Source: Bacilli bacterium
GTDB taxonomy: Bacteria; Bacillota_I; Bacilli_A; RF39; UBA660
Length of the DNA: 45,276 nt
Direction: 5' to 3'
Assembly: GCA_028684735.1 (NCBI GenBank)
Contig: JAQUFI010000001.1
Location: 1 to 45,276 of the forward strand
Shown: piece by piece, positions 2,071 through 41,358 of the stretch
Layout of the letters: each line of letters begins with the position of its first letter
Position numbering within the stretch: the first letter of the stretch is position 1
Notes under the pieces: generated by a model
Told to the model about the DNA's origin: nothing
What the model saw: the letters and a program-made list of their open reading frames with translations, nothing else
Database searches by the model: none
Translations under genes and position numbers: made by a program

Positions 2071-2919
2071 TCATCTACCTTTATACTTTAAATATTCATT
2101 ATAAACATCACTCTTTTTAAGATGACGATCTTTACTAACAGCTTTTATTGCATCCATTACTTTATATCCATCAGCAATATACTCTTCAATATGTTCAATA
2201 AGTGTCCAATTGTCATAGTTTTCCCCAGTATTATTACCAGCTACCATTAAAACAATTTCTCCTTTAATGTCAACAATTTGTTCTAAAATGCTTTTGACAC
2301 TCCCTCTAAATACCTCTTCATATTTCTTAGTTATTTCCCGGGAAATACATATTTCCCTATTTCCCATAATATCTAAGACATTTCCCAAAGTTTTCTGAAT
2401 ACGATGAGGAGCCTCATAAAAAATTAAAGTTGCAGTTTCCTTTTCTAAACTTTCTAATTCTTCTTTTCTTTTAGTTTCAGTACTATTTAAAAAACCATAA
2501 AAGAGAAATGGCATTGGTTTAATTCCAGACATCGTTAAAGCTGGAATTAAAGCTGTTGCTCCAGGTAAAGACACCACATTATAACCTTTTTCGATAACAT
2601 ATTTGGCCATTTCATAACCAGGGTCACTTATAATAGGAGTACCTCGATCACTTACTAGTGCGATATCATCACCACTACTTAAATAATTTAGTGCTAACTC
2701 AAGATTCTTTTTCTCATTATGTTCATGATTAGCTATCATTTTTTTCTTAATTTCTAATTTCTTTAATAATAACCCTGTAACCCTAGTATCTTCCGAAAAA
2801 ATTACTTTAACCTCTTTTAAAACATTGATTGCTCTTAAAGTAATATCATCCATATTTCCAATTGGGGTTGGAATTAAATATAAAGTAGGACTATTATCAT
2901 AACTCTTCTGTGACATCAA
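2071..2919 (-). CDS. rsmI: 16S rRNA (cytidine1402-2'-O)-methyltransferase RsmI
   Basis: LYLIPTPIGNMDDITLRAINVLKEV..., tetrapyrrole-methylase fold, typical length (282 aa). Confidence 0.9.
   Translation of the reverse strand: MMSQKSYDNSPTLYLIPTPIGNMDDITLRAINVLKEVKVIFSEDTRVTGLLLKKLEIKKKMIANHEHNEKKNLELALNYLSSGDDIALVSDRGTPIISDPGYEMAKYVIEKGYNVVSLPGATALIPALTMSGIKPMPFLFYGFLNSTETKRKEELESLEKETATLIFYEAPHRIQKTLGNVLDIMGNREICISREITKKYEEVFRGSVKSILEQIVDIKGEIVLMVAGNNTGENYDNWTLIEHIEEYIADGYKVMDAIKAVSKDRHLKKSDVYNEYLKYKGR
2333..2346. promoter_or_regulatory. Perfect Noc-binding-site (NBS) palindrome ATTTCCCGGGAAAT inside rsmI
   Basis: Exact match to the B. subtilis NBS consensus. The 16-bp TATTTCCCGGGAAATA spans 2332-2347. 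Two further ATTTCCC half-sites lie at 2351-2357 and 2359-2365. Confidence 0.6.
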
Positions 2920-5381: not shown

Positions 5382-5579
5382 TTAAAAAACAATCAGCAAT
5401 ATTATAATTAATGATAATAGCATTGGTATACCAAAGATTGTGACTGCTAAAACAGTAACTACATTGATTGGTATAACTAAATTAAGTGGCGCCATAATTA
5501 AATTGTAACCATATATAAAAAAGGCACTCAAAATTATTTTTTTTCCAAATTTTAATATTTTTTTCAACATTTTGTCCAC
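5382..5579 (-). CDS. bofA: BofA-family small membrane protein (pro-sigmaK processing inhibitor-like)
   Basis: 65 aa with two TM segments. The C-terminal VIPINVVTVLAVTIFGIPMLLSLIIIL resembles B. subtilis BofA (HVPINLVTTAISGILGIPGIAAL, from memory). It lies just downstream of recR, as in Bacillus. Confidence 0.65.
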   Translation of the reverse strand: MDKMLKKILKFGKKIILSAFFIYGYNLIMAPLNLVIPINVVTVLAVTIFGIPMLLSLIIILLIVF

Positions 5580-8337: not shown

Positions 8338-8781
8338 TTATTTCCTTTTAGTTTTAAAAAAATCACTTAATAATTTTTGAGATTCTTTTTTATATAATCC
8401 CTCTACTATTTCAATATTATAATTATTAATTATTTCTTTTAATATATTATTTGTACTAGAAACAAAACCAAACTTTTCTGAGTTTGTTGCATAAACAATC
8501 TTTTTTATTCTAGATTCTAATATTGCTCCAAAACACATTAAACAAGGTTCTAAAGTTACATACAATATACAGTCATCTAAATGCCAACTTTTTAACTTTT
8601 TACAAGCTTCTTCAATTGCTAAAATTTCTGCGTGATGAGTTGCTGTTTTGTTTTTTTCTTTTTTATTATGTGCTTTAGCTATTACCTTATCATTCTTTAC
8701 AATCACTGCCCCAACCGGTACATCATCTTTTATATAGCTTTTATTAGCTTCTATTAAAGCTAATTTCATATATTTTTCCAT
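8338..8781 (-). CDS. tadA: tRNA-specific adenosine deaminase
   Basis: HAEILAIE and PCLMCFGA deaminase zinc motifs. Probable ATG at 8781 (MEKYMKLAL...). The ORF-track start at 8793 is a TTG. Confidence 0.9.
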   Translation of the reverse strand: MEKYMKLALIEANKSYIKDDVPVGAVIVKNDKVIAKAHNKKEKNKTATHHAEILAIEEACKKLKSWHLDDCILYVTLEPCLMCFGAILESRIKKIVYATNSEKFGFVSSTNNILKEIINNYNIEIVEGLYKKESQKLLSDFFKTKRK

Positions 8782-8799
8782 TATATCACCCAATAATTA

Positions 8800-8877
8800 A
8801 AATAGCACACACATTTAGAGGTTTTTAAGGCTGCTATCTTCCGATTCTGACCTGATTCAAACATAAATGTTGTGCCT
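8800..8877 (-). ncRNA. ffs: Small (4.5S-type) signal recognition particle RNA
   Basis: The minus-strand RNA reads GGCACAACAUUUAUGUUUGAAUCAGGUCAGAAUCGGAAGAUAGCAGCCUUAAAAACCUCUAAAUGUGUGUGCUAUUUU. It carries the domain IV signature CAGGUCAG...C-GGAA-G...AGCAGCC with a GGAA tetraloop closed by AUC/GAU. The 5' GCACAACAUUUA pairs with the 3' UAAAUGUGUGUGC. A U-tract sits at the 3' end. The upstream promoter is TTGATT (8911-8906), 17 nt, TATATT (8888-8883). Confidence 0.75.
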
Positions 8878-8959
8878 TTTATAATATATACCATAATTTA
8901 TAAAAAATCAATTTAAATTAAATTATTGTCCGAGAAATGTTTTTTAAGCATTTTATATA

Positions 8960-8975
8960 TGTTTCACGTGAAACA
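8960..8975. promoter_or_regulatory. parS site 1 (TGTTTCACGTGAAACA, perfect palindrome)
   Basis: Matches the Firmicute parS consensus TGTTNCACGTGAAACA 16/16. With flanks it forms the 18-bp palindrome ATGTTTCACGTGAAACAT. Confidence 0.8.
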
Positions 8976-9010
8976 TAACTTTTAATTTTAATTATATATA
9001 CTATTTTTTA

Positions 9011-9026
9011 TGTTTCACGTGGAACA
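9011..9026. promoter_or_regulatory. parS site 2 (TGTTTCACGTGGAACA)
   Basis: Reverse complement is TGTTCCACGTGAAACA, the classical B. subtilis parS sequence. Confidence 0.8.
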
Positions 9027-9129
9027 TGACTTTGAAATTAATGTTTTTTTGTTTAATTATGATCAATAATATAAGTATAACATTCTATTATGTTGATTAT
9101 TTTTTTAAATTTAAAACATAACATACTAA

Positions 9130-9145
9130 TGTTTCACGTGGAACA
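9130..9145. promoter_or_regulatory. parS site 3 (TGTTTCACGTGGAACA)
   Basis: Identical 18-mer ATGTTTCACGTGGAACAT as site 2. Shares the 3' flank AACTTTTAA with site 1. Confidence 0.8.
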
Positions 9146-9236
9146 TAACTTTTAACTTAAATATTATATAATTATTAATCCATTCATTAAAAAACTACAT
9201 TACATATACAATTTTTGTTTTATATTTTCTAAAAAC

Positions 9237-9250
9237 ATTTCCCGGGAAAT
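9237..9250. promoter_or_regulatory. Perfect Noc-binding-site (NBS) ATTTCCCGGGAAAT within the parS array
   Basis: Exact NBS consensus. The palindrome extends to 24 bp (AAAACATTTCCCGGGAAATGTTTT, 9232-9255). Confidence 0.6.
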
Positions 9251-9285
9251 GTTTTGTGGATGTTTTATATATATTTTACTATTAA

Positions 9286-9301
9286 TGTTTCACGTGGAAC
9301 A
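9286..9301. promoter_or_regulatory. parS site 4 (TGTTTCACGTGGAACA)
   Basis: Same 18-mer as sites 2 and 3, in the same orientation. Confidence 0.8.
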
Positions 9302-9330
9302 TAATACATTAGTTATGGTGTTTAATATGT

Positions 9331-9364
9331 ATTAAAAAAATAATGTTCTAATAGAACATTATTT
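9331..9364 (-). terminator. Rho-independent terminator of gyrA
   Basis: AAATAATGTTCT-AAT-AGAACATTATTT, a 12-bp stem (9338-9364), followed on the minus strand by a T-run. Confidence 0.6.
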
Positions 9365-9385
9365 ATATTAATATGTTATTTTTGA

Positions 9386-9401
9386 TGTTTCACGTGAAAC
9401 A
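9386..9401. promoter_or_regulatory. parS site 5 (TGTTTCACGTGAAACA, perfect palindrome)
   Basis: 16/16 consensus match, located 3 nt downstream of the gyrA stop codon. Confidence 0.8.
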
Positions 9402-9404
9402 TTG

Positions 9405-11852
9405 TTATTGAGATAGTTCTTCTTCAGTAAAGGTTGATTGATCTTCTTTATCAATAATAGCTGTTGTGGATACTTGTTGTTCTTCCTTAAGATTAATTAA
9501 TCTAACCCCTTGAGCTACTCTTCCTGTTGTGGATACTTGCTCCAATGGCAATCTTATGATAATACCGTTGTTTGTAATGATCATTAAATCTTCAATACCG
9601 CTAACAGTTTTAAAAGAAATAATATCACCATTTTTTTCGGTAACATTTAATGCTTTAACCCCTTTGCCGCCGCGATGTGTCTTTCTATATTGTTCTACTG
9701 GTGTTCTTTTCCCATATCCATTTTTTGTTACTACTAATACTTCTTGTCCTTCATTAACAATTTCACATCCTACGCATATAGAATTACCAATATTTACCCC
9801 TTTAACTCCAGAAGCTGTTCTACCCATGATTCTTATTTCAGTTTCATCAAATCTTATCATTCTTCCATCAGAAGTGCCAATAATTATTTCATTATCACCG
9901 GTTGTTTTTTTAACCGAAATTAATTCATCATCATCTTTTAACGAAATAGCTATTTTACCATTGTTTCTGATACTTTCGAATTCACTAACTTTAGTTCGTT
10001 TTACCAATCCTTTTTGTGTACAAAATACAACGTTGCTTACTTCTTCATGTTCGCTTACTTTCAACATTACATTTACTATTTCTCCTTCGTTTAATGGTAG
10101 GAGATTTATAATAGGAATTCCTTTTGATTGCCTGTTAAAAGCTGGAACTTCATAACCTTTAATACGATAAACCTTTCCTCTATTAGTAAAGAATAATAAA
10201 TAATCATGTGTGGTCATAGAAATTATATTTTCAACGAAATCTTCTTCATTTGTAACCATACCTTTAATTCCGACCCCTCCACGATTTTGGGTACGATAAA
10301 TTTCACTATTCATTCTTTTAATATAATCTTTACTTGTAAGAGTTATAACTATTTCCTCGACTGGAATTAACGATTCATCTTCAATATATTCGATAGATGT
10401 CATATCAATAATCGTTTTTCTTTCATCGTTATATTTATTTTTAATTTCTATTAATTCTTCTTTTATAACAGCTAAAATATTTTCTTCATTATACATAATT
10501 TCTAGAAGTTTTTCAATTTCTTTTAATAATTCACTAATTTCTGTTTCGATTTTTCCTTTTTCTAACCCAGTTAATCGACGTAATTTCATTTCAAGAATAG
10601 CTTCTGCTTGAATTTTTGTTAATTCAAACTTTTCTATTAATCCTTTAATAGCTTCATCATCCGTTTTTGATGATCTAATTAATTTAATTACTTCTTCAAT
10701 ATTATCTAAAGCTATTTTCAAACCCTCTAAAATGTGTAATCTATTTTGATTTTTTTCTAAATCAAATTGACAACGACGATAAATAACTTCTTTTTGATGA
10801 TCTAAATATTTTTCTAAAATTGTTTTTAAATCAAGAGTTCTTGGTCTACCATCAACTAACATTAAAAAGTTTATACCATATGATACTTGCAATTGCGTAT
10901 GTTTATATAAATTATTTAAAACCACATTGGCATTTGCTTCTTTTTTTACATCAATTACAATTTTTATACCCTCAAGGGCTGATTCATCATTTAAATTTGA
11001 AATGCCATCAATTACTTTATCTCTAACTAATTCAGCAATTCTAGTAATCAAATTCTTTTTATTAACCTCGTATGGAAGTTCTGTGATTATTATTCTATTT
11101 TTTCCATTTTTTTCTTCGATATCAACTTTTCCTCGAATAGTTATAGTGCCTCTTCCTGTTTCAAAAGCTTTTTTAATACCGCTATTTCCTAAAATTATAC
11201 CAGAAGTAGGAAAATCAGGTCCTTTAATATATTGCATTAACTCTAATATCGTTATATCACGATTATCAATATAAGCTATACAACCATCGATTGCCTCACC
11301 AAGATTATGGGGTGGTATATTTGTTGCCATTCCAACTGCTATTCCCATATTACCATTAACTAAAATGTTTGGGAATCGACATGGTAATACATTAGGTTCT
11401 TTTCTTTGACCATCGTAATTTTCAGAAAAATCTACTGTGTTTTTGTTTAAATCTCTCAAAATCTCCATCGAAATTTTAGATAATTTAGCTTCTGTATAAC
11501 GTGAAGCAGCAGCACCATCACCATCTATTGATCCAAAGTTACCATGGCCATCAACTAAAACATGGCGATAAGTAAAATCTTGTGCCATTCTAACCATTGT
11601 TTCATAAATAGCTGTATCTCCATGGGGATGATAATGCCCCATCACTGCACCCACCGCATTAGCACTCTTTTGGTGTTTTTTATCAGGAGTCATTCCTTCT
11701 TCATACATTGTATATAAAATTCTTCGATGAACAGGTTTTAATCCATCTCGAACATCAGGAATGGCTCTTGAAACAATAACACTCATTGAATAATCTAAAA
11801 ATGATGTTTTCATTTCTGATGTAATATTAACATTTACTATTTTATCTTTCAT
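9405..11852 (-). CDS. gyrA: DNA gyrase subunit A
   Basis: DGLKPVHRRILY, HPHGDTAIYETMVRMAQ, AAASRYTE active-site Tyr region, C-terminal beta-pinwheel repeats. Start taken at MKDKIVNV (11852), which has a GGGGTGA SD. The ORF-track start at 11885 overlaps the gyrB end. Confidence 0.95.
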   Translation of the reverse strand: MKDKIVNVNITSEMKTSFLDYSMSVIVSRAIPDVRDGLKPVHRRILYTMYEEGMTPDKKHQKSANAVGAVMGHYHPHGDTAIYETMVRMAQDFTYRHVLVDGHGNFGSIDGDGAAASRYTEAKLSKISMEILRDLNKNTVDFSENYDGQRKEPNVLPCRFPNILVNGNMGIAVGMATNIPPHNLGEAIDGCIAYIDNRDITILELMQYIKGPDFPTSGIILGNSGIKKAFETGRGTITIRGKVDIEEKNGKNRIIITELPYEVNKKNLITRIAELVRDKVIDGISNLNDESALEGIKIVIDVKKEANANVVLNNLYKHTQLQVSYGINFLMLVDGRPRTLDLKTILEKYLDHQKEVIYRRCQFDLEKNQNRLHILEGLKIALDNIEEVIKLIRSSKTDDEAIKGLIEKFELTKIQAEAILEMKLRRLTGLEKGKIETEISELLKEIEKLLEIMYNEENILAVIKEELIEIKNKYNDERKTIIDMTSIEYIEDESLIPVEEIVITLTSKDYIKRMNSEIYRTQNRGGVGIKGMVTNEEDFVENIISMTTHDYLLFFTNRGKVYRIKGYEVPAFNRQSKGIPIINLLPLNEGEIVNVMLKVSEHEEVSNVVFCTQKGLVKRTKVSEFESIRNNGKIAISLKDDDELISVKKTTGDNEIIIGTSDGRMIRFDETEIRIMGRTASGVKGVNIGNSICVGCEIVNEGQEVLVVTKNGYGKRTPVEQYRKTHRGGKGVKALNVTEKNGDIISFKTVSGIEDLMIITNNGIIIRLPLEQVSTTGRVAQGVRLINLKEEQQVSTTAIIDKEDQSTFTEEELSQ

Positions 11853-11862
11853 TTTATCACCC

Positions 11863-13788
11863 CTATACATCAAGATTCTTAACATTTAATGCATTATCTT
11901 CAATAAATTTTCTTCTTGGTTCAACCTCTTCACCCATTAAGATTTGGAATATTTCATCAGCTGCAATAGCATCATCTAATTCTATTTTAACTAATAATCT
12001 AGTATCAATATGCATTGTAGTTTCTCTTAATTCAATAGCATCCATTTCCCCTAAACCTTTCATACGAGTTATATCGTATTTGGTATTTTCAGGTAACGTA
12101 GAAAGATATTCATCGCGTTCAACTTCATTTAAAACATATTTACTGGTTTTTCCATGACTAATTTTAAATAAAGGTGGTTGAGCTGCATAAATATGACCGG
12201 CTTCCACTAATGGTTTAAAATAACGGTAAAAGAAGGTTAATAATAAAGTCCTAATATGAGCACCATCCACATCAGCATCGGTCATAATAATTATTTTATG
12301 ATATCGTAATTTTGTTATATCAAATTCATCACCAATACCTGTCCCAAAAGCAGTAATAATACTTCTAATTTCTTCGTTACCTAATATTCTATCTAATCTT
12401 GCTTTTTCAACGTTTAGAATTTTACCTCGGATTGGTAAAACTGCTTGCGTTGCTGAATTTCTTCCTTGTTTTGCTGGTCCTGCTGCACTATCCCCTTCAA
12501 CTATAAATATTTCAGAAATAGAAGCATCTTTAGATGAACAATCAGTTAATTTTCCCCATTGATTAGTTAACTCTAAACCACCCTTACGACGAGTTAATTC
12601 ACGTGCTTTTTTAGCTGCTAGTCTGGCACGTGATGCTGTTAATGATTTTTCAATAATTGTTTTAGCTTGATCAGGATTTTCTAATAAAAACCTTTCAAAT
12701 CCATCACTAAATATATCAGATGATATTTTTCTTACTTCACTATTACCCAATTTTGTTTTAGTTTGACCTTCAAATTGCGGATTTGGATGTTTACAAGAAA
12801 TAATCATAGTTAAACCTTCTCTTACATCATCACCAGTTAAAGATTCTTCGTTATCTTTTAAATATTTATGGTTTCTAGCATAATTATTAATAATTCTTGT
12901 TAAAGAATTTTTTACTCCATCTTCATGAGTTCCACCTTCATGAGTATGAATATTGTTTGTAAAAGAATATACATTAGTTGTATAACTTGAATTATATTGA
13001 AAAGCAATTTCTAATGAAATATTGTCTATTTCACTACTAAAATGAACAATATTATTATGAATTGGAGTTTTGTTTTTATTTAGTAATTCAACATAAGCAC
13101 TAATACCACCCTCATAAATAAACTCTTCCTTTTTTAACTCATTAACATCTCTTTCATCACATAAAATAATTTTTAAATTTTTATTTAAAAAAGCTAATTC
13201 TCTTATTCTTGTCCTTAAAATTTCATAATCAAATGTCTGAGTTTCCGTAAATATGCTAGGATCTGGTTTAAATGTAATTGTAGTCCCTGTTCTATCCAAA
13301 GAACAAGTATCTATTATTTCTAATGGTTTGACTGGCTTTCCACCATCTTCAAAACGGATATAATGTACTTTTCCGTCTTGATAGATTGTCGCTTCTAACC
13401 AACTACTAAGCGCATTAACAACACTTCCACCAACCCCGTGAAGACCACCAGAGACTTTATATCCACTTCCTCCAAATTTCCCACCTGCATGTAAGATAGT
13501 AAATACTGTTTCAACCGTCGATAAACCAGTTTTTTTATGGATACCAACTGGTATTCCTCGACCATCATCCCTCACAGTTATTGATTCGTCTTTATTTATA
13601 ATAACTTCTATATCATCACAAAAACCCGCTAGTGCTTCATCAATTGCATTATCTACTATTTCCCAAACTAAATGATGCAAACCTCTAGAACTTGTTGCTC
13701 CTATATACATACCTGGTCTTTTTCTTACTGCTTCTAAGCCTTCTAATACTTGAATATCAGAAGCATCATAATGTGTATCTTTATTCAT
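11863..13788 (-). CDS. gyrB: DNA gyrase subunit B
   Basis: [21 protein letters not shown] ATPase, Toprim EGDSAGG-type (EGDSAAGP), [12 protein letters not shown]-type motif. Confidence 0.96.
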
Positions 13789-15004: not shown

Positions 15005-15040
15005 TTTAAAAAAAGAAAAAATAAGCAATATTGCTTATTT
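15005..15040 (-). terminator. Rho-independent terminator of comK
   Basis: AAATAAGCAA-TAT-TGCTTATTT hairpin (15018-15040) overlapping the stop codon. A T-rich run follows on the minus strand. Confidence 0.6.
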
Positions 15041-15498
15041 TATACTGTTTTTAATTTCATTAATTTAGATTCTAACATAGTTGCTCTATAAATTTGATTT
15101 TCTAATGTAAAAAATGATAAATTTAATTGAATTTCTTTTCCATTTTTAAAAACGATTATACTTTTATTTATATCACTTTTATTTTTATAATAATCTTTAA
15201 TGTTACATAAAGAAACCCAATAACAATTATCGAAACGTGGTGAACTTGTTGGAAAAAAAATTAAATTACTATATTCGCTAATAATTATTGGAGATTTATA
15301 CGTTACTCCGATTAATTTTTTTGTCCCATCTTTTCGACCTAAATATGAACTTCCAAAAAACTTACAACTCTCATCAATTATTTTTGTAGTTGATTTTTTT
15401 ACTAAAAACTGATTATCTTCTTCTATAATTTGTGAAATTTTGTCTGTAACAGGAATTATAACTAATGTTCCTCTATTTATTTCGTAATTATCCCTCAT
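15040..15498 (-). CDS. comK: ComK-family competence transcription factor
   Basis: SCKFFGSSYLGRKDGT, SPIIISEYSNLIFFPTSS and LENQIYRATMLESK align with B. subtilis ComK SCRFFGSSYAGRKAGT, PPIMVDPSNQIFLFPTLS and FENQVYRTAWLRTK (from memory); 152 aa. Confidence 0.8.
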   Translation of the reverse strand: MRDNYEINRGTLVIIPVTDKISQIIEEDNQFLVKKSTTKIIDESCKFFGSSYLGRKDGTKKLIGVTYKSPIIISEYSNLIFFPTSSPRFDNCYWVSLCNIKDYYKNKSDINKSIIVFKNGKEIQLNLSFFTLENQIYRATMLESKLMKLKTV

Positions 15499-18292: not shown

Positions 18293-18506
18293 TGTGGAAA
18301 AAACTTTTAAATAACAACATATTTTCAACTTTTCCACAATAATGGTGGAAAATAAAAAAAAATTAATTTATTGTATAATTTTTCCACAAAAACTGTGGAA
18401 AAAGGATTAAGTCATTATATTACCTAATCTAAAATTTTCTTTTTTTGTGGAAAAGTATGTTTATTATTTGCTGTTTTGCAAAAATATCAATTTAAATAGT
18501 GGATAA
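18293..18506. other. oriC upstream module: cluster of seven DnaA boxes between dnaA and rpmH
   Basis: TGTGGAAAA at 18293-18301, TTTTCCACA at 18330-18338, GGTGGAAAA at 18344-18352, TTTTCCACA at 18380-18388, TGTGGAAAA at 18394-18402, TGTGGAAAA at 18446-18454, AGTGGATAA at 18498-18506. Two head-to-head pairs are separated by 5 nt. dnaA and rpmH are divergent, and gene orientation switches here. Confidence 0.8.
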
Positions 18507-25326: not shown

Positions 25327-26994
25327 TTGTGTAGTGTGGATATTGAAAAAAAGATAACGGAATTAAATCTTGCTGATATCTTACCTAATCGCTTTCAACC
25401 AAGGATTAAATTTGGTGAAGATGCGATTAATGAATTGTCGGAATCAATCAAAGAACATGGAGTAATTCAACCAATTGTTGTTAGAGCAATTGGTGATAAA
25501 TATGAAATCATAGCTGGTGAAAGAAGATATAAAGCCAGTGTTTTAGCAGGAAGAAATACAATACCTGCTATTGTTACGGATTTAAATGATAAAGATAGTG
25601 CTGAAGTGGCTTTAATTGAAAATGTTCAAAGACAAGATTTAACACCAATTGAAGAAGCAATATCATATAAAAAAATTATTGATATGGGATTTACTCAAGA
25701 GCAATTAGCAAGCAAATTAGGAAATAAGCAATCGACGATAGCTAATAAGTTACGATTATTGAATTTAAATGAAGATGTTCAAGAAGCTTTATTAGAAGGA
25801 AAAATATCAGAAAGACATGCAAGATCAATTTTAAGACTTAACAGTCAACAACAAACAGAAATATTAAACAAAGTATTATCTGAAAGGTTAACGGTAAGAA
25901 AAACTGATCAAGAAATAGACAAATTATTAAATGAAAAAAGTGTTGATACGTCAATTGATAATGTGGAGTTTTTAGATGTTAGTTTATTTAATCAAAAGAA
26001 AGAAGAAGAACCTTCTTCGGTAACTATTGATTCTATTTTAGGAATAGAACCAATGGAAGAAAGGGTTAGCCCAATGAATAATGAAAATGAACAAACAACT
26101 TTAGGAATTTTTAATAATTCTATTCAATTCCCAAGTGGACCAATCCTTAATGAAGCAATTAAAACGCCAATTAATATACCTAGTAATCCGATTCAAGATG
26201 AAGAAACCCCAAATATTCCTAATTTTGAGGTAGAAATTCCTGTTGATGGGGTTAATCCAGGCTTCATGAATATTGAAAAAATTGAAACAGAAGCACAAAA
26301 TATAAATGAAGATAAACCATTAGCTGATGTGAATTTGTTATTACAACCAGAACCATTTAAAAATAATCAAGATGGTTATGATTTTAACCTATCACAATCA
26401 GAAAACACATCTCATGAACCACGTTTTTTTAATAATTTTAAAGAAGAAAATAATATCGAACCAATAAATAATTTTAATTTTTCTATTGAGGAACCAAAAA
26501 CAAATGAAATAAATAATAATCTTGTAATGGAACAACCAATTGAATCTGAAAAACCATTGGAAACAGAAATATTTCCACAACCAGAAATAACTACAGAAGC
26601 ACCATTGGAATCGTTTACACCAACAGTCCCAATTGTAAAGTCACAACCAGAAGTATTTCCACCAACCGCACCAATTGTTGAATCACAACCAGAACCAATA
26701 AACCCTATAACATTTGATATTCCAATGGAAAATAATATAACTAGTGATAATCAAATAAGTAATGAACCTACCAATAACTTTGATTTTAATATCGAACCAA
26801 TAAATAATATAAATTCTAATATTGGCCAACCAGTTATGTCAGAAACATTTTACCAAGGTGAAAAAACATTAAAGGCAGCTATTGATATTATTAGAAAATG
26901 TGAATCAAGAATCAAAGATATAGGATTTGAGGTCGAAATTGAAGAAATAGACTTTGAAGATATATATCAAGTAATATTTAAAATAAATAAGTAA
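25327..26994 (+). CDS. noc: ParB-family protein of the Noc (nucleoid occlusion) type with a ~300-aa low-complexity insertion
   Basis: ILPNRFQPR, IIAGERRYKAS (CTP-binding GERR box), HTH QSTIANKLRLLNL...ISERHARSIL, and C-terminal IKDIGFEVEIEEIDFEDIYQVIFKINK resemble B. subtilis Noc (from memory) more than Spo0J. Position directly after rsmG. The start is TTG at 25327 or GTG at 25336. An in-frame TGA at 25309-25311 blocks any upstream extension. Confidence 0.8.
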   Translation: MCSVDIEKKITELNLADILPNRFQPRIKFGEDAINELSESIKEHGVIQPIVVRAIGDKYEIIAGERRYKASVLAGRNTIPAIVTDLNDKDSAEVALIENVQRQDLTPIEEAISYKKIIDMGFTQEQLASKLGNKQSTIANKLRLLNLNEDVQEALLEGKISERHARSILRLNSQQQTEILNKVLSERLTVRKTDQEIDKLLNEKSVDTSIDNVEFLDVSLFNQKKEEEPSSVTIDSILGIEPMEERVSPMNNENEQTTLGIFNNSIQFPSGPILNEAIKTPINIPSNPIQDEETPNIPNFEVEIPVDGVNPGFMNIEKIETEAQNINEDKPLADVNLLLQPEPFKNNQDGYDFNLSQSENTSHEPRFFNNFKEENNIEPINNFNFSIEEPKTNEINNNLVMEQPIESEKPLETEIFPQPEITTEAPLESFTPTVPIVKSQPEVFPPTAPIVESQPEPINPITFDIPMENNITSDNQISNEPTNNFDFNIEPINNINSNIGQPVMSETFYQGEKTLKAAIDIIRKCESRIKDIGFEVEIEEIDFEDIYQVIFKINK

Positions 26995-38043: not shown

Positions 38044-38577
38044 ATGATATTTATGAGAAAGTCGATACTATTTATTTTAGGAATGCTGATGATTTATTTA
38101 TTATTAGGTAATATATACACAAATAAGATTGTCATCCCTGATGAGGCAATTCGACTTAGAGTAATACCTCATAGTAATAATAAAAACGATCAAATGATTA
38201 AACAACAAGTATCGATATTATTACAAGATGAGATGTATCATTTGCTTAAAAATACAACGAAAATTGAAGAAGCTCGAAGTATTATTAATAATAATTTAGA
38301 TAAACTTGATATGTCAATTAACAACCTCTTAACAAATAAAAAGTATCCTTATGGGTATCAAGTTAATTTTGGATATAATTACTTTCCTGAGAAGGAATAC
38401 AATGATATTATCTATAATGAAGGTTACTATGAATCCTTATTAGTAACCTTAGGAAATGGTTCAGGGGATAATTGGTGGTGTGTTCTTTTTCCACCATTAT
38501 GTTTATTAGAAGGAACAGAAAGCAATACCATTGAATATAAATTTTTTATTAAAGAAATAATCGATAAATATTTTTAG
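38044..38577 (+). CDS. spoIIR: Stage II sporulation protein R
   Basis: IRLRVIPHSNNKNDQMIKQQV and GDNWWCVLFPPLC are SpoIIR signatures. N-terminal signal/TM segment. Confidence 0.8.
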   Translation: MIFMRKSILFILGMLMIYLLLGNIYTNKIVIPDEAIRLRVIPHSNNKNDQMIKQQVSILLQDEMYHLLKNTTKIEEARSIINNNLDKLDMSINNLLTNKKYPYGYQVNFGYNYFPEKEYNDIIYNEGYYESLLVTLGNGSGDNWWCVLFPPLCLLEGTESNTIEYKFFIKEIIDKYF

Positions 38578-40104: not shown

Positions 40105-41358
40105 ATGAAACAAATAAGAATTAGTGGTGGACATGTTTTAGAGGGAACAATTAGAATTAGTGGGGCAAAGAATAGTGCCGTAGCACTAGTTCCAGCCTCA
40201 TTGTTATCTGATGAAATTGTTAAATTAGATAATGTTCCTAATATTTCTGATATCGATGCCTTAAATGAGATTTTAACTTTTTTAGGTGCAAAAGTAAAAC
40301 GAAATGGTGAATTGATGGAAATTGATTCAAGTGAAGTTGAAAATAAAGGAATCCCTGAACATATATCTAAAAAATTACGAGCATCATATTACTTTATGGG
40401 TGCTTTATTAGGAAAATATAAAAAAGTAGAAATGTATTTCCCTGGTGGATGTTCAATTGGGTCTAGACCAATCAATCTCCATTTAAAAGGATTTGAAGCT
40501 TTAGGAGCAACGGTTATTGAAGAAGGAAATAAATATACAATTTATGCTGAAGAATTAAAGGGTAGTCATATTTATTTAGATATGGCTAGTGTTGGAGCGA
40601 CGATTAATATTATGCTTGCAGCTGTAAAAGCAACTGGTTTAACAATTATTGAAAATGCTGCTAAAGAACCTGAAATCGTCAATGTAGCAACTTTCTTAAA
40701 TCAAATGGGTGCTAAAATAACTGGAGCAGGAACAAGTGAGATAAAAATAACAGGTGTTGATAAACTAGGTAGTTGTTATATGGAAGTTATTCCTGATCGA
40801 ATTGAAACAGGAACTTATGTAATTGCTGGTGCTTTAAGAGGTAAAAACTTAAAAATAGATAATATTATTCCTGAACATATTGAAGCACTTTTAATTAAAT
40901 TAAAAGAAATGGGTGTTAAGTTAGATGTATATGAAGATCATTTAATGATATCGGCTACAGATAATTTAAAACCAGTTAATATAACAACTCAAGTCTATCC
41001 AGGTTTTGCAACTGATTTACAACAACCAATCACAACCTTGTTGACAATGACTAATGGTACTTGTCAATTAGAAGAGACCATCTATGAAAATAGATTTCAA
41101 AATGTTGAATACCTAAATAAAATGGGCGCAGATATAACCATCAAAGATCAATCAATTGTTATTGTAGGACCATCTAAATTAAGGGGAACAACTGTTAAAG
41201 CAACAGATTTAAGGGCGGGTGCTTGTCTTATTCTAGCAGGATTAATTGCTGAAGGAGAAACAGTTATTGAAGAAGTTGAACATGTTCTTCGAGGATACGA
41301 AAACATAATTGAAAAATTAACGGATGTTGGTGCTAAAATTAAATTAGAAGAAATATAA
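40105..41358 (+). CDS. murA: UDP-N-acetylglucosamine 1-carboxyvinyltransferase
   Basis: MKQIRISGGHVLEGTIRISGAKNSAV, active-site GGCSIGSRP, C-terminal RGYENI. Start at the ATG at 40105 after GGAGG. The ORF-track start at 40063 overlaps fba. Confidence 0.94.
   Translation: MKQIRISGGHVLEGTIRISGAKNSAVALVPASLLSDEIVKLDNVPNISDIDALNEILTFLGAKVKRNGELMEIDSSEVENKGIPEHISKKLRASYYFMGALLGKYKKVEMYFPGGCSIGSRPINLHLKGFEALGATVIEEGNKYTIYAEELKGSHIYLDMASVGATINIMLAAVKATGLTIIENAAKEPEIVNVATFLNQMGAKITGAGTSEIKITGVDKLGSCYMEVIPDRIETGTYVIAGALRGKNLKIDNIIPEHIEALLIKLKEMGVKLDVYEDHLMISATDNLKPVNITTQVYPGFATDLQQPITTLLTMTNGTCQLEETIYENRFQNVEYLNKMGADITIKDQSIVIVGPSKLRGTTVKATDLRAGACLILAGLIAEGETVIEEVEHVLRGYENIIEKLTDVGAKIKLEEI

Follow-up and report, generated by a model that had tools for sequence, protein, structure and literature searches.

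A dense array of consensus parS sites, joined by Noc-binding sites, behind gyrA in an uncultured gut lineage of Bacilli

The gyrA-ffs spacer and its parS sites

The stretch of DNA considered here (called the window) is a whole MAG contig of 45,276 bp, labelled "Bacilli bacterium", with a GC content of about 26%. A spacer separates gyrA from ffs, and beyond ffs come tadA (8338-8793) and then dnaX, ybaB, and recR (Table 1). Both flanks of the spacer are thus formed by core housekeeping genes in a conserved order, and neither mobile-element genes nor an adjacent parA-parB operon are seen there. The initial annotation treated the spacer as a single non-coding stretch. It does contain no ORF of 60 aa or more, but its left part belongs to the small SRP RNA gene (8792-8884), so that the stretch without assignment is 8885-9404. 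The distance to oriC, put at about 9 kb in the same annotation, comes to approximately 8.9 kb when it is measured to the DnaA-box cluster, and the GC-skew minimum (at about 18 kb) agrees with this.

Table 1. Features of the window, with coordinates on the forward strand
Feature	Coordinates	Strand	Remarks
second exact NBS	2333..2346		inside rsmI, over the motif ISREITK
ffs (small SRP RNA)	8792..8884	-	right-hand boundary of the array
decayed NBS-like copy	8925..8938		ATTGTCCGAGAAAT; 3 mismatches
parS-1	8959..8976		ATGTTTCACGTGAAACAT; perfect 18-bp palindrome
parS-2	9010..9027		ATGTTTCACGTGGAACAT; differs solely at the degenerate N of the consensus
parS-3	9129..9146		ATGTTTCACGTGGAACAT
exact NBS	9237..9250		ATTTCCCGGGAAAT; inside the parS cluster; extended 25-bp palindrome 9231-9255
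parS-4	9285..9302		ATGTTTCACGTGGAACAT
probable gyrA intrinsic terminator	9338..9364	-	AT-rich 12-13-bp stem, then U run
parS-5	9385..9402		perfect palindrome; 2 nt past the stop of gyrA
gyrA	9405..11885	-	left-hand landmark of the array, conserved
DnaA-box cluster (oriC)	18293..18506		six boxes upstream of dnaA, at the GC-skew minimum
ParB-family gene	25327..26994	+	sole one in the contig; after rsmG; Noc-type DNA-binding domain; no adjacent parA

The 18-mer ATGTTTCACGTG[A/G]AACAT occurs five times between 8959 and 9402, with 16-bp cores that begin at 8960, 9011, 9130, 9286, and 9386, and all five cores match TGTTNCACGTGAAACA at 16 of 16 positions on one strand. The sites at 8960 and 9386 are perfect palindromes, and the remaining three share one orientation, reading TGTTTCACGTGGAACA on the plus strand. 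Our scan re-found these sites where the initial annotation had placed them, and the irregular spacing of their centres (51, 119, 156, and 100 bp) and the 3' flank common to sites 1-3 were likewise confirmed. The density is about 11 sites per kb within a stretch of about 440 bp. When up to two mismatches are allowed, dinucleotide-preserving shuffles give a chance expectation of 0.01 sites for the whole window, as against the five observed; with up to three mismatches, one extra match appears, a chance 3-mismatch match within gyrA at 11493. The statement that the 45 kb hold no other parS-like core also stands: no TTCACGTGAA-like core was found elsewhere, the nearest being the 1-mismatch TTCAAGTGAA at 40326. 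Judged by their sequence match, the five sites are bona fide consensus parS, on which a ParB protein would be expected to load.

The flanks of the five sites have diverged to 65-80% identity, whereas the 18-mers themselves are intact. Because the sites have been preserved while their surroundings decayed, selection seems to act on the sites themselves, and a recent neutral expansion would not leave this pattern. The description of the cluster as a tandem array does not hold for the window, in whose spacer Tandem Repeats Finder detects no array and regular head-to-tail units of the sopC kind are absent; true tandem arrays are found in relatives, as described below. There is also no sign of helical phasing, in that neither the spacings in the window nor the repeat periods in relatives are multiples of about 10.5 bp.

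A probable intrinsic terminator of gyrA, spotted by inspection and backed by folding (dG -11 kcal/mol, z -4.8), lies inside the spacer, although a promoter and terminator scan of the same spacer yielded nothing significant. Since parS-5 is located upstream of this hairpin, between it and the gyrA stop codon, the site would be transcribed together with the gene.

The array in relatives and its Noc-binding sites

To compare the locus across the lineage, 80 loci were chosen by gyrA similarity alone, with one genome per species. All of them come from MAGs of uncultured gut "Bacilli" or "Tenericutes", their GyrA proteins share 61-75% identity with that of the window, and together they provided 1.38 Mb for scanning. 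One relative carries the label "Candidatus Scybalousia", a name that the NCBI taxonomy puts in Bacteroidales and that gives no help in placing the lineage, for which RF39, RFN20, and ML615J-28 are no more than tentative affiliations. With up to one mismatch allowed, the first 3.5 kb behind the gyrA stop codon hold 274 parS sites, and the rest of this DNA holds only three. Even these three stand at the array edge, 20-39 bp upstream of the gyrA stop. Within the DNA scanned, the sites are thus concentrated at one origin-proximal locus and not dispersed.

The gyrA-tadA spacer is complete in 53 of the relatives. At least two parS sites are kept in 43 of these spacers, the number per spacer varies between 0 and 11 and is most often 3, and parS is absent from the locus in five; the five sites of the window are therefore ordinary for the group. 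An "anchor" parS, located 1-20 nt after the gyrA stop codon, recurs in many relatives. Among 319 parS sites, variation is nearly confined to positions 5 and 12, which are the N of the Bacillus subtilis consensus, and the A and T that flank the core are conserved, which suggests that the selected unit is the 18-mer. Several relatives carry true tandem arrays, with periods of 39 bp (L004), 54 bp (L046), 74 bp (L023), 120 bp (L042), 125 bp (L070), and 126 bp (L062), and such different periods indicate independent amplifications in different sublineages. It should be mentioned that, of the 80 contigs, about 26 stop less than some 700 bp behind gyrA; assemblies evidently break in the arrays, and the parS counts are for this reason lower bounds. 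Present in most of the uncultured gut relatives sampled, the array characterises the lineage.

The spacer also contains binding sites for Noc (Noc-binding sites, NBS). In the window, one exact NBS stands inside the parS cluster, and the stretch 8920-8967 is 73% identical to 9232-9279, so that it represents a diverged duplicate of the NBS-containing stretch and carries the decayed NBS. The second exact copy, inside rsmI, is spelled with the rare codons TCC and CGG, the latter used only three times in 13,482 codons, and about 17 relatives have an NBS equally far from gyrA. The use of the rare CGG codon by an intragenic copy suggests that the site is under selection in the window genome, and NBS appear, from these sequence features, to be functional in the source organism. 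The exact NBS in the spacer, its decayed copy, and the Noc-type identity of the ParB-family gene had not been noticed in the initial annotation.

Across the 80 relatives, exact NBS are about 13 times denser in the DNA that follows gyrA (67 in 186 kb) than elsewhere (33 in 1.19 Mb), and at least one NBS is present in 17 of the 53 complete spacers. The coupling is closest in the tandem arrays: in L070 and L062, every repeat unit contains one parS and one NBS, and in L042 an intact NBS is found in two of the three complete units. A metagenome scan returned at least 120 stretches, nearly all of low GC content, in which a parS lies within 5-35 bp of an NBS. Those listed, together with 14 viral contigs, make up 134 further loci. 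Among the matches listed for these 134 loci, gyrA adjoins the sites in 82 and tadA in 93, and in many of the listed metagenome matches parS and NBS alternate in a P-N-P-N order. There is one clear outsider, L171 (49% GC), a contig with a classical noc-soj-spo0J arrangement, in which four parS-like sites and one NBS lie between noc and soj. Co-clustering therefore occurs also where both readers are visibly present.

Are the two kinds of site read by one protein or by two? In 2.15 Mb of lineage DNA, we counted 717 pure parS and 382 pure NBS as against about 20 sites that are hybrid, chimeric, or otherwise variant; true hybrids number about 10, as against 1,099 pure sites. A single reader with dual specificity should tolerate hybrid sites, and their near absence argues for two distinct proteins. 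The composition of the sites thus points to separate readers for parS and NBS.

A Noc-type ParB-family protein

The initial annotation assumed a ParB of the Spo0J type, an assumption that the contig does not bear out: its sole ParB-family gene is of the Noc type, and no soj-spo0J pair follows it. The best NCBIfam model for the encoded protein is TIGR04285 (nucleoid_noc) with 275.7 bits, as compared with 167 for parB_part, although this score stays below the model's cut-off of 315. Its specificity residues are Q173, K179, N184, and R201 (Caulobacter numbering, alignment made here). Both Q173 and R201 are kept in all 120 of the closest database relatives listed, among which 94 show the pattern QKNR, 16 QTNR, and 10 QKKR. 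Specificity for NBS has been assigned to Q173 and R201 plus a lysine at position 179 or 184, whereas R173 is invariable in parS-specific variants and dual binders mostly have T or S at position 201 (PMC7383237). By its residues, the protein is the presumed reader of NBS, and not of parS.

In other respects the protein is unusual. The N-terminus ahead of the LPNRFQPR box is short, at about 16-19 residues (MDIEKKITELNLADI), and the ORF is not extendable upstream. As judged by sequence inspection, an N-terminal membrane-targeting amphipathic helix is absent and there is no room for one. In B. subtilis, Noc requires this helix for its function, so that the role of the helix-less protein at the array is not simply transferable from B. 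subtilis. The linker between the DNA-binding and C-terminal domains is about 300 aa long (range 250-400), acidic, and rich in Pro and Asn.

The gene order rsmG, noc-type gene, uvrB is kept in the window and three relatives, and uvrB takes the ancestral position of soj-spo0J after noc. The window, 83 related loci, and the 134 further loci, all of this being origin-proximal DNA, were searched by tblastn, the queries being the window protein and the Spo0J, Soj, and Noc proteins of B. subtilis. The sole matches were the Noc-type gene, the Bacillales-like contig L171 mentioned above, and one viral contig (L205). Neither a Spo0J-type ParB (R173/G201) nor ParA turned up in the window, within 10 kb on either side of gyrA in the 80 relatives, around the noc-type gene in three relatives, or at the lineage's metagenome loci, about 120 in number. 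The supplement of the RF39/RFN20 sporulation paper likewise has no entries for spo0J, soj, or parB. In Staphylococcus aureus, the parB gene is located far from noc, and the absence of parB near the origin is for this reason not its absence from the genome.

A probable compact centromere

How can these observations be brought together? Consensus parS sites are confined to one spacer, whose place at the 3' end of gyrA has been kept throughout a deep lineage. On these grounds, we consider it likely that the spacer is the compact chromosomal centromere of the lineage and that it has two readers, a canonical ParB at parS and the Noc paralogue at NBS. The idea of a dedicated centromere, already put forward in the initial annotation, gains from the conservation of parS behind gyrA, with 2-11 copies in most relatives, but it has to be modified in one respect: the cluster is not purely parS and includes NBS.

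The proposed mechanism is built by analogy with known ParB systems. A canonical ParB of the Spo0J type (R173/G201), which would be encoded outside the contig, is expected to nucleate on each parS, to close as a CTP-dependent clamp, and then to slide off. The clamp flux would rise with several loading sites side by side, and a single large partition complex could be built at a constant position near the origin, where it would load SMC and mark the origin for segregation. This expectation, a higher clamp flux and a robust SMC-loading complex from adjacent sites, agrees with what was concluded about the ten-site cluster in Corynebacterium glutamicum. The Noc-type paralogue, encoded after rsmG, would load at NBS, so that ParB and Noc complexes might form side by side within a few hundred bp. 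Possible roles for such co-loading are the anchoring of the origin, its protection from division, or the control of initiation. The array itself may evolve by tandem duplication and decay at a fixed address. That no ParA was seen fits a system that works without ParA, as in S. aureus and Streptococcus pneumoniae.

A bolder version of this idea, to which we give distinctly less credence, is that the centromere is composite: parS and NBS would be co-amplified as one unit beside gyrA, and a helix-less, long-linker Noc paralogue would have been recruited as the partner of ParB, or in the extreme as its replacement, in a setting where no ParA was found. If this tentative reading were true, the members of the ParB/Noc family would be sharing out their work in a new way.

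Canonical ParB may, on the other hand, have been lost together with Soj, in which case parS would be recognised either by the long Noc-type protein, with dual specificity, or by some unrelated or unknown factor. Several observations would suit such a loss: soj-spo0J is missing after noc in the window and three relatives, a second ParB-family gene is not found in some 3 Mb of DNA from the lineage, repeat units tie parS and NBS together, and the Noc-type protein is atypical (N184, long linker, no helix). The genomes also appear small, two complete chromosomes of relatives measuring about 1.5 Mb, and we infer that a loss of par genes would fit genome reduction. It is known, too, that dual-specificity variants of the ParB scaffold can exist (PMC7383237). 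However, the combination of Q173 and R201 is NBS-specific, while parS binders invariably have R173 and dual binders mostly T or S at position 201. The hybrid sites that a dual reader should tolerate are nearly absent, and the variation of parS follows the Spo0J consensus exactly. It should also be remembered that the search for par genes covered origin-proximal DNA only, and that parB of S. aureus is not a neighbour of noc. Taken together, we regard the loss of ParB as unlikely.

Much less probable still are two explanations in which the sites are not a chromosomal centromere at all. In one, the repeats merely look like parS and serve as operators of a transcription factor acting on ffs, tadA-dnaX, or the termination of gyrBA. 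The array does lie between the gyrA terminator and ffs, where it overlaps the ffs promoter wherever this is placed, and one parS overlaps a promoter-like match; yet such matches number 9 in the spacer as against 8.2 in shuffled sequence, the 16/16 agreement is with a well-defined ParB site, up to 11 copies go far beyond the needs of an operator, and copy number and spacing vary freely among relatives while the position stays fixed. The other is that the array is the sopC-like centromere of a plasmid or phage that is, or formerly was, integrated, or else a neutral expanding satellite that has no present function. Consensus parS tandem arrays with 35-55-bp periods do occur on 14 IMG/VR contigs, near a ParB gene in one case, and the units are amplified in a satellite-like manner in relatives, whose assemblies often break there. 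Against this origin stand the housekeeping flanks with their conserved gene order and no mobile-element genes, the fixed locus across a lineage in which GyrA identity is only 61-75%, and the perfect sites between decayed flanks in the window, which speak for selection on the sites. To this last explanation, too, we assign hardly any probability.

The two-reader centromere is thus our preferred reading, and the claim to novelty has to be drawn more narrowly than in the initial annotation. The array is unusually dense and fixed in the lineage, but origin-proximal parS clusters with variable numbers of sites are already known (see PMC7083940 for a ten-site cluster), and so are the tandem-repeat centromeres of plasmids (sopC). 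What seems new is threefold, in that no description was found in the open-access literature searched of a chromosomal parS array of such density, of an array fixed at the 3' end of gyrA throughout a lineage, or of parS-NBS interleaving together with a helix-less, long-linker Noc.

Why several parS sites are kept close together, and what drives their clustering, has been named as an open question in the field. The present lineage is an extreme natural case, in which a single spacer with a fixed location contains all detectable parS, the number of copies and the repeat period shift fast between relatives, and parS is often coupled to NBS. A compact natural fragment of 0.3-1.4 kb could serve as a test of site number and spacing against ParB clamp flux. 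The sites also predict that two paralogous CTP clamps load naturally on one and the same piece of DNA, and the lineage supplies a Noc variant that lacks the membrane helix. In practical terms, the arrays break short-read assemblies (about one-third of the relatives' contigs end there), so that in the group's MAGs they can serve as markers of the origin region.

Systems based on ParB, parS, and SMC work without ParA in S. aureus and S. pneumoniae, and parS numbers are variable among bacteria. The present lineage resembles these two species in that no ParA is detectable near the origin, whereas ParB is known there and is inferred here. With the Noc-NBS systems of B. subtilis and S. aureus it has in common the NBS core, the Noc-type residues, the location of the gene after rsmG, and the occurrence of NBS also inside genes. 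In contrast to these systems, NBS are here concentrated in the parS array and interleaved with it, and the protein has a long linker, has no N-terminal helix, and scores below the TIGR04285 cut-off.

Centromeres of the plasmid and phage sopC type consist of head-to-tail units with one palindromic ParB site each, as do the arrays of L004, L046, L023, L070, and L062, and the viral IMG/VR contigs (L204-L217) carry head-to-tail consensus parS units like those of the relatives. The array described here differs from the sopC type in that it is chromosomal, flanked by housekeeping genes, and without an adjacent parAB; in the window its units are moreover diverged and irregularly spaced.

The Spo0J(ParB)-parS system of B. 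subtilis offers the same 16-bp site with the same degenerate position, the same origin-proximal place, and presumably the same logic of CTP-clamp loading. In that species, about ten parS sites, several of which lie within genes, are scattered across a wide region around the origin, whereas here all detectable parS are gathered in one intergenic spacer of about 440 bp at a lineage-conserved position, and no soj-spo0J accompanies noc. The closest parallel in arrangement is found in C. glutamicum, where ten parS sites within 35 kb form a hub for chromosome folding by ParB and SMC (PMC7083940). Both cases have multiple redundant consensus parS, mostly intergenic, at one origin-proximal locus. The cluster of C. 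glutamicum is, however, located 73 kb from oriC, as compared with 9 kb here, and involves no NBS or Noc; its parS sites number about 0.3 per kb, whereas the window reaches about 11 per kb and the densest relative one every 39 bp.

Noc-binding site in rsmI and the Noc-type ParB paralogue

In addition to the copy of the Noc-binding site (NBS) that lies in the parS array downstream of gyrA, an exact NBS is located inside the coding sequence of rsmI. At this position, the NBS is spelled with codons that are rare in the window: TCC accounts for 17 of the 751 Ser codons and CGG for three of the 454 Arg codons. An NBS is also found at this same distance from gyrA (+6.1 to +7.6 kb) in approximately 17 relatives. 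Because of these rare codons and this recurrence, it is suggested that the intragenic Noc site in rsmI is under selection at the DNA level.

The Noc-type paralogue, the only ParB-family gene in the window, has neither an N-terminal amphipathic helix nor, as judged by eye, an LG(K/R)GL-type ParA-binding motif. Its family comprises at least 120 database clusters (416–649 aa), and the NBS-specificity residues Q173 and R201 are present in all family members among the matches listed.

Features of the window and of a metagenome contig (L171)
Feature	Position	Context or composition
Exact NBS	2333–2346	within rsmI CDS (2071–2919, −), over motif ISREITK
bofA	5382–5579	sporulation gene
comK	15040–15498	origin operon, between dnaN and recF
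oriC DnaA-box cluster	18293–18506	variant TTTTCCACA ×5 and TTATCCACT ×1
Noc-type ParB paralogue	25327–26994	acidic linker of ~300 aa, Pro/Asn-rich, repeated N-F-x-F-like motifs
spoIIR	38044–38577	sporulation gene
parS/NBS cluster of L171	1550–2340 (L171)	noc-soj spacer

Origin region and lifestyle

The order dnaN-comK-recF is also kept in the three relatives whose loci around the noc-type gene were compared (L081–L083). The window contig, with a GC content of 26%, carries the sporulation genes bofA and spoIIR, and the complete chromosomes of lineage relatives are approximately 1.5 Mb in size; these two observations suggest that it comes from a spore former among the gut Bacilli with reduced genomes.

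Arrays in relatives selected by gyrA

Among the 80 related contigs, approximately 26 terminate within about 700 bp downstream of the gyrA stop codon (including L004, L008, L009, L020–L024, L034, L037, L040, and L042). The parS/NBS arrays are evidently break points of short-read assemblies, and the true array sizes therefore exceed those observed. No parS follows gyrA in L038, L050, L059, L061, or L078, and L050 is still without one in a gyrA spacer of 2.9 kb; the centromere of these five may be located elsewhere or may have been lost.

It should be mentioned that seven relatives that match the window in gene order (L003, L036, L038, L041, L044, L046, and L056) carry labels such as Muribaculaceae, Roseburia, Methanobrevibacter, and Clostridia, and that “Candidatus Scybalousia”, the label of one relative, belongs to the Bacteroidales in the NCBI taxonomy. 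These discordant labels appear to be mistakes of binning or labelling in the public records of metagenome-assembled genomes.

parS clusters outside the gyrA lineage

The gyrA lineage is not the sole bearer of parS and NBS co-clustering, since in the noc-soj spacer of L171, a metagenome contig of 49% GC with the order noc-soj-spo0J, a single exact NBS accompanies four parS-like sites (ATGTTCCACGTGGAACA). Furthermore, 14 contigs of the viral collection IMG/VR (L204–L217, GC 30–65%) fit a three-site tandem parS pattern, 13 of them with two to eight parS sites (at most one mismatch) at periods of 35–55 bp, and in L205 a ParB-like gene lies approximately 1.9 kb from the array. Host-type parS arrays seem to be used by mobile elements.
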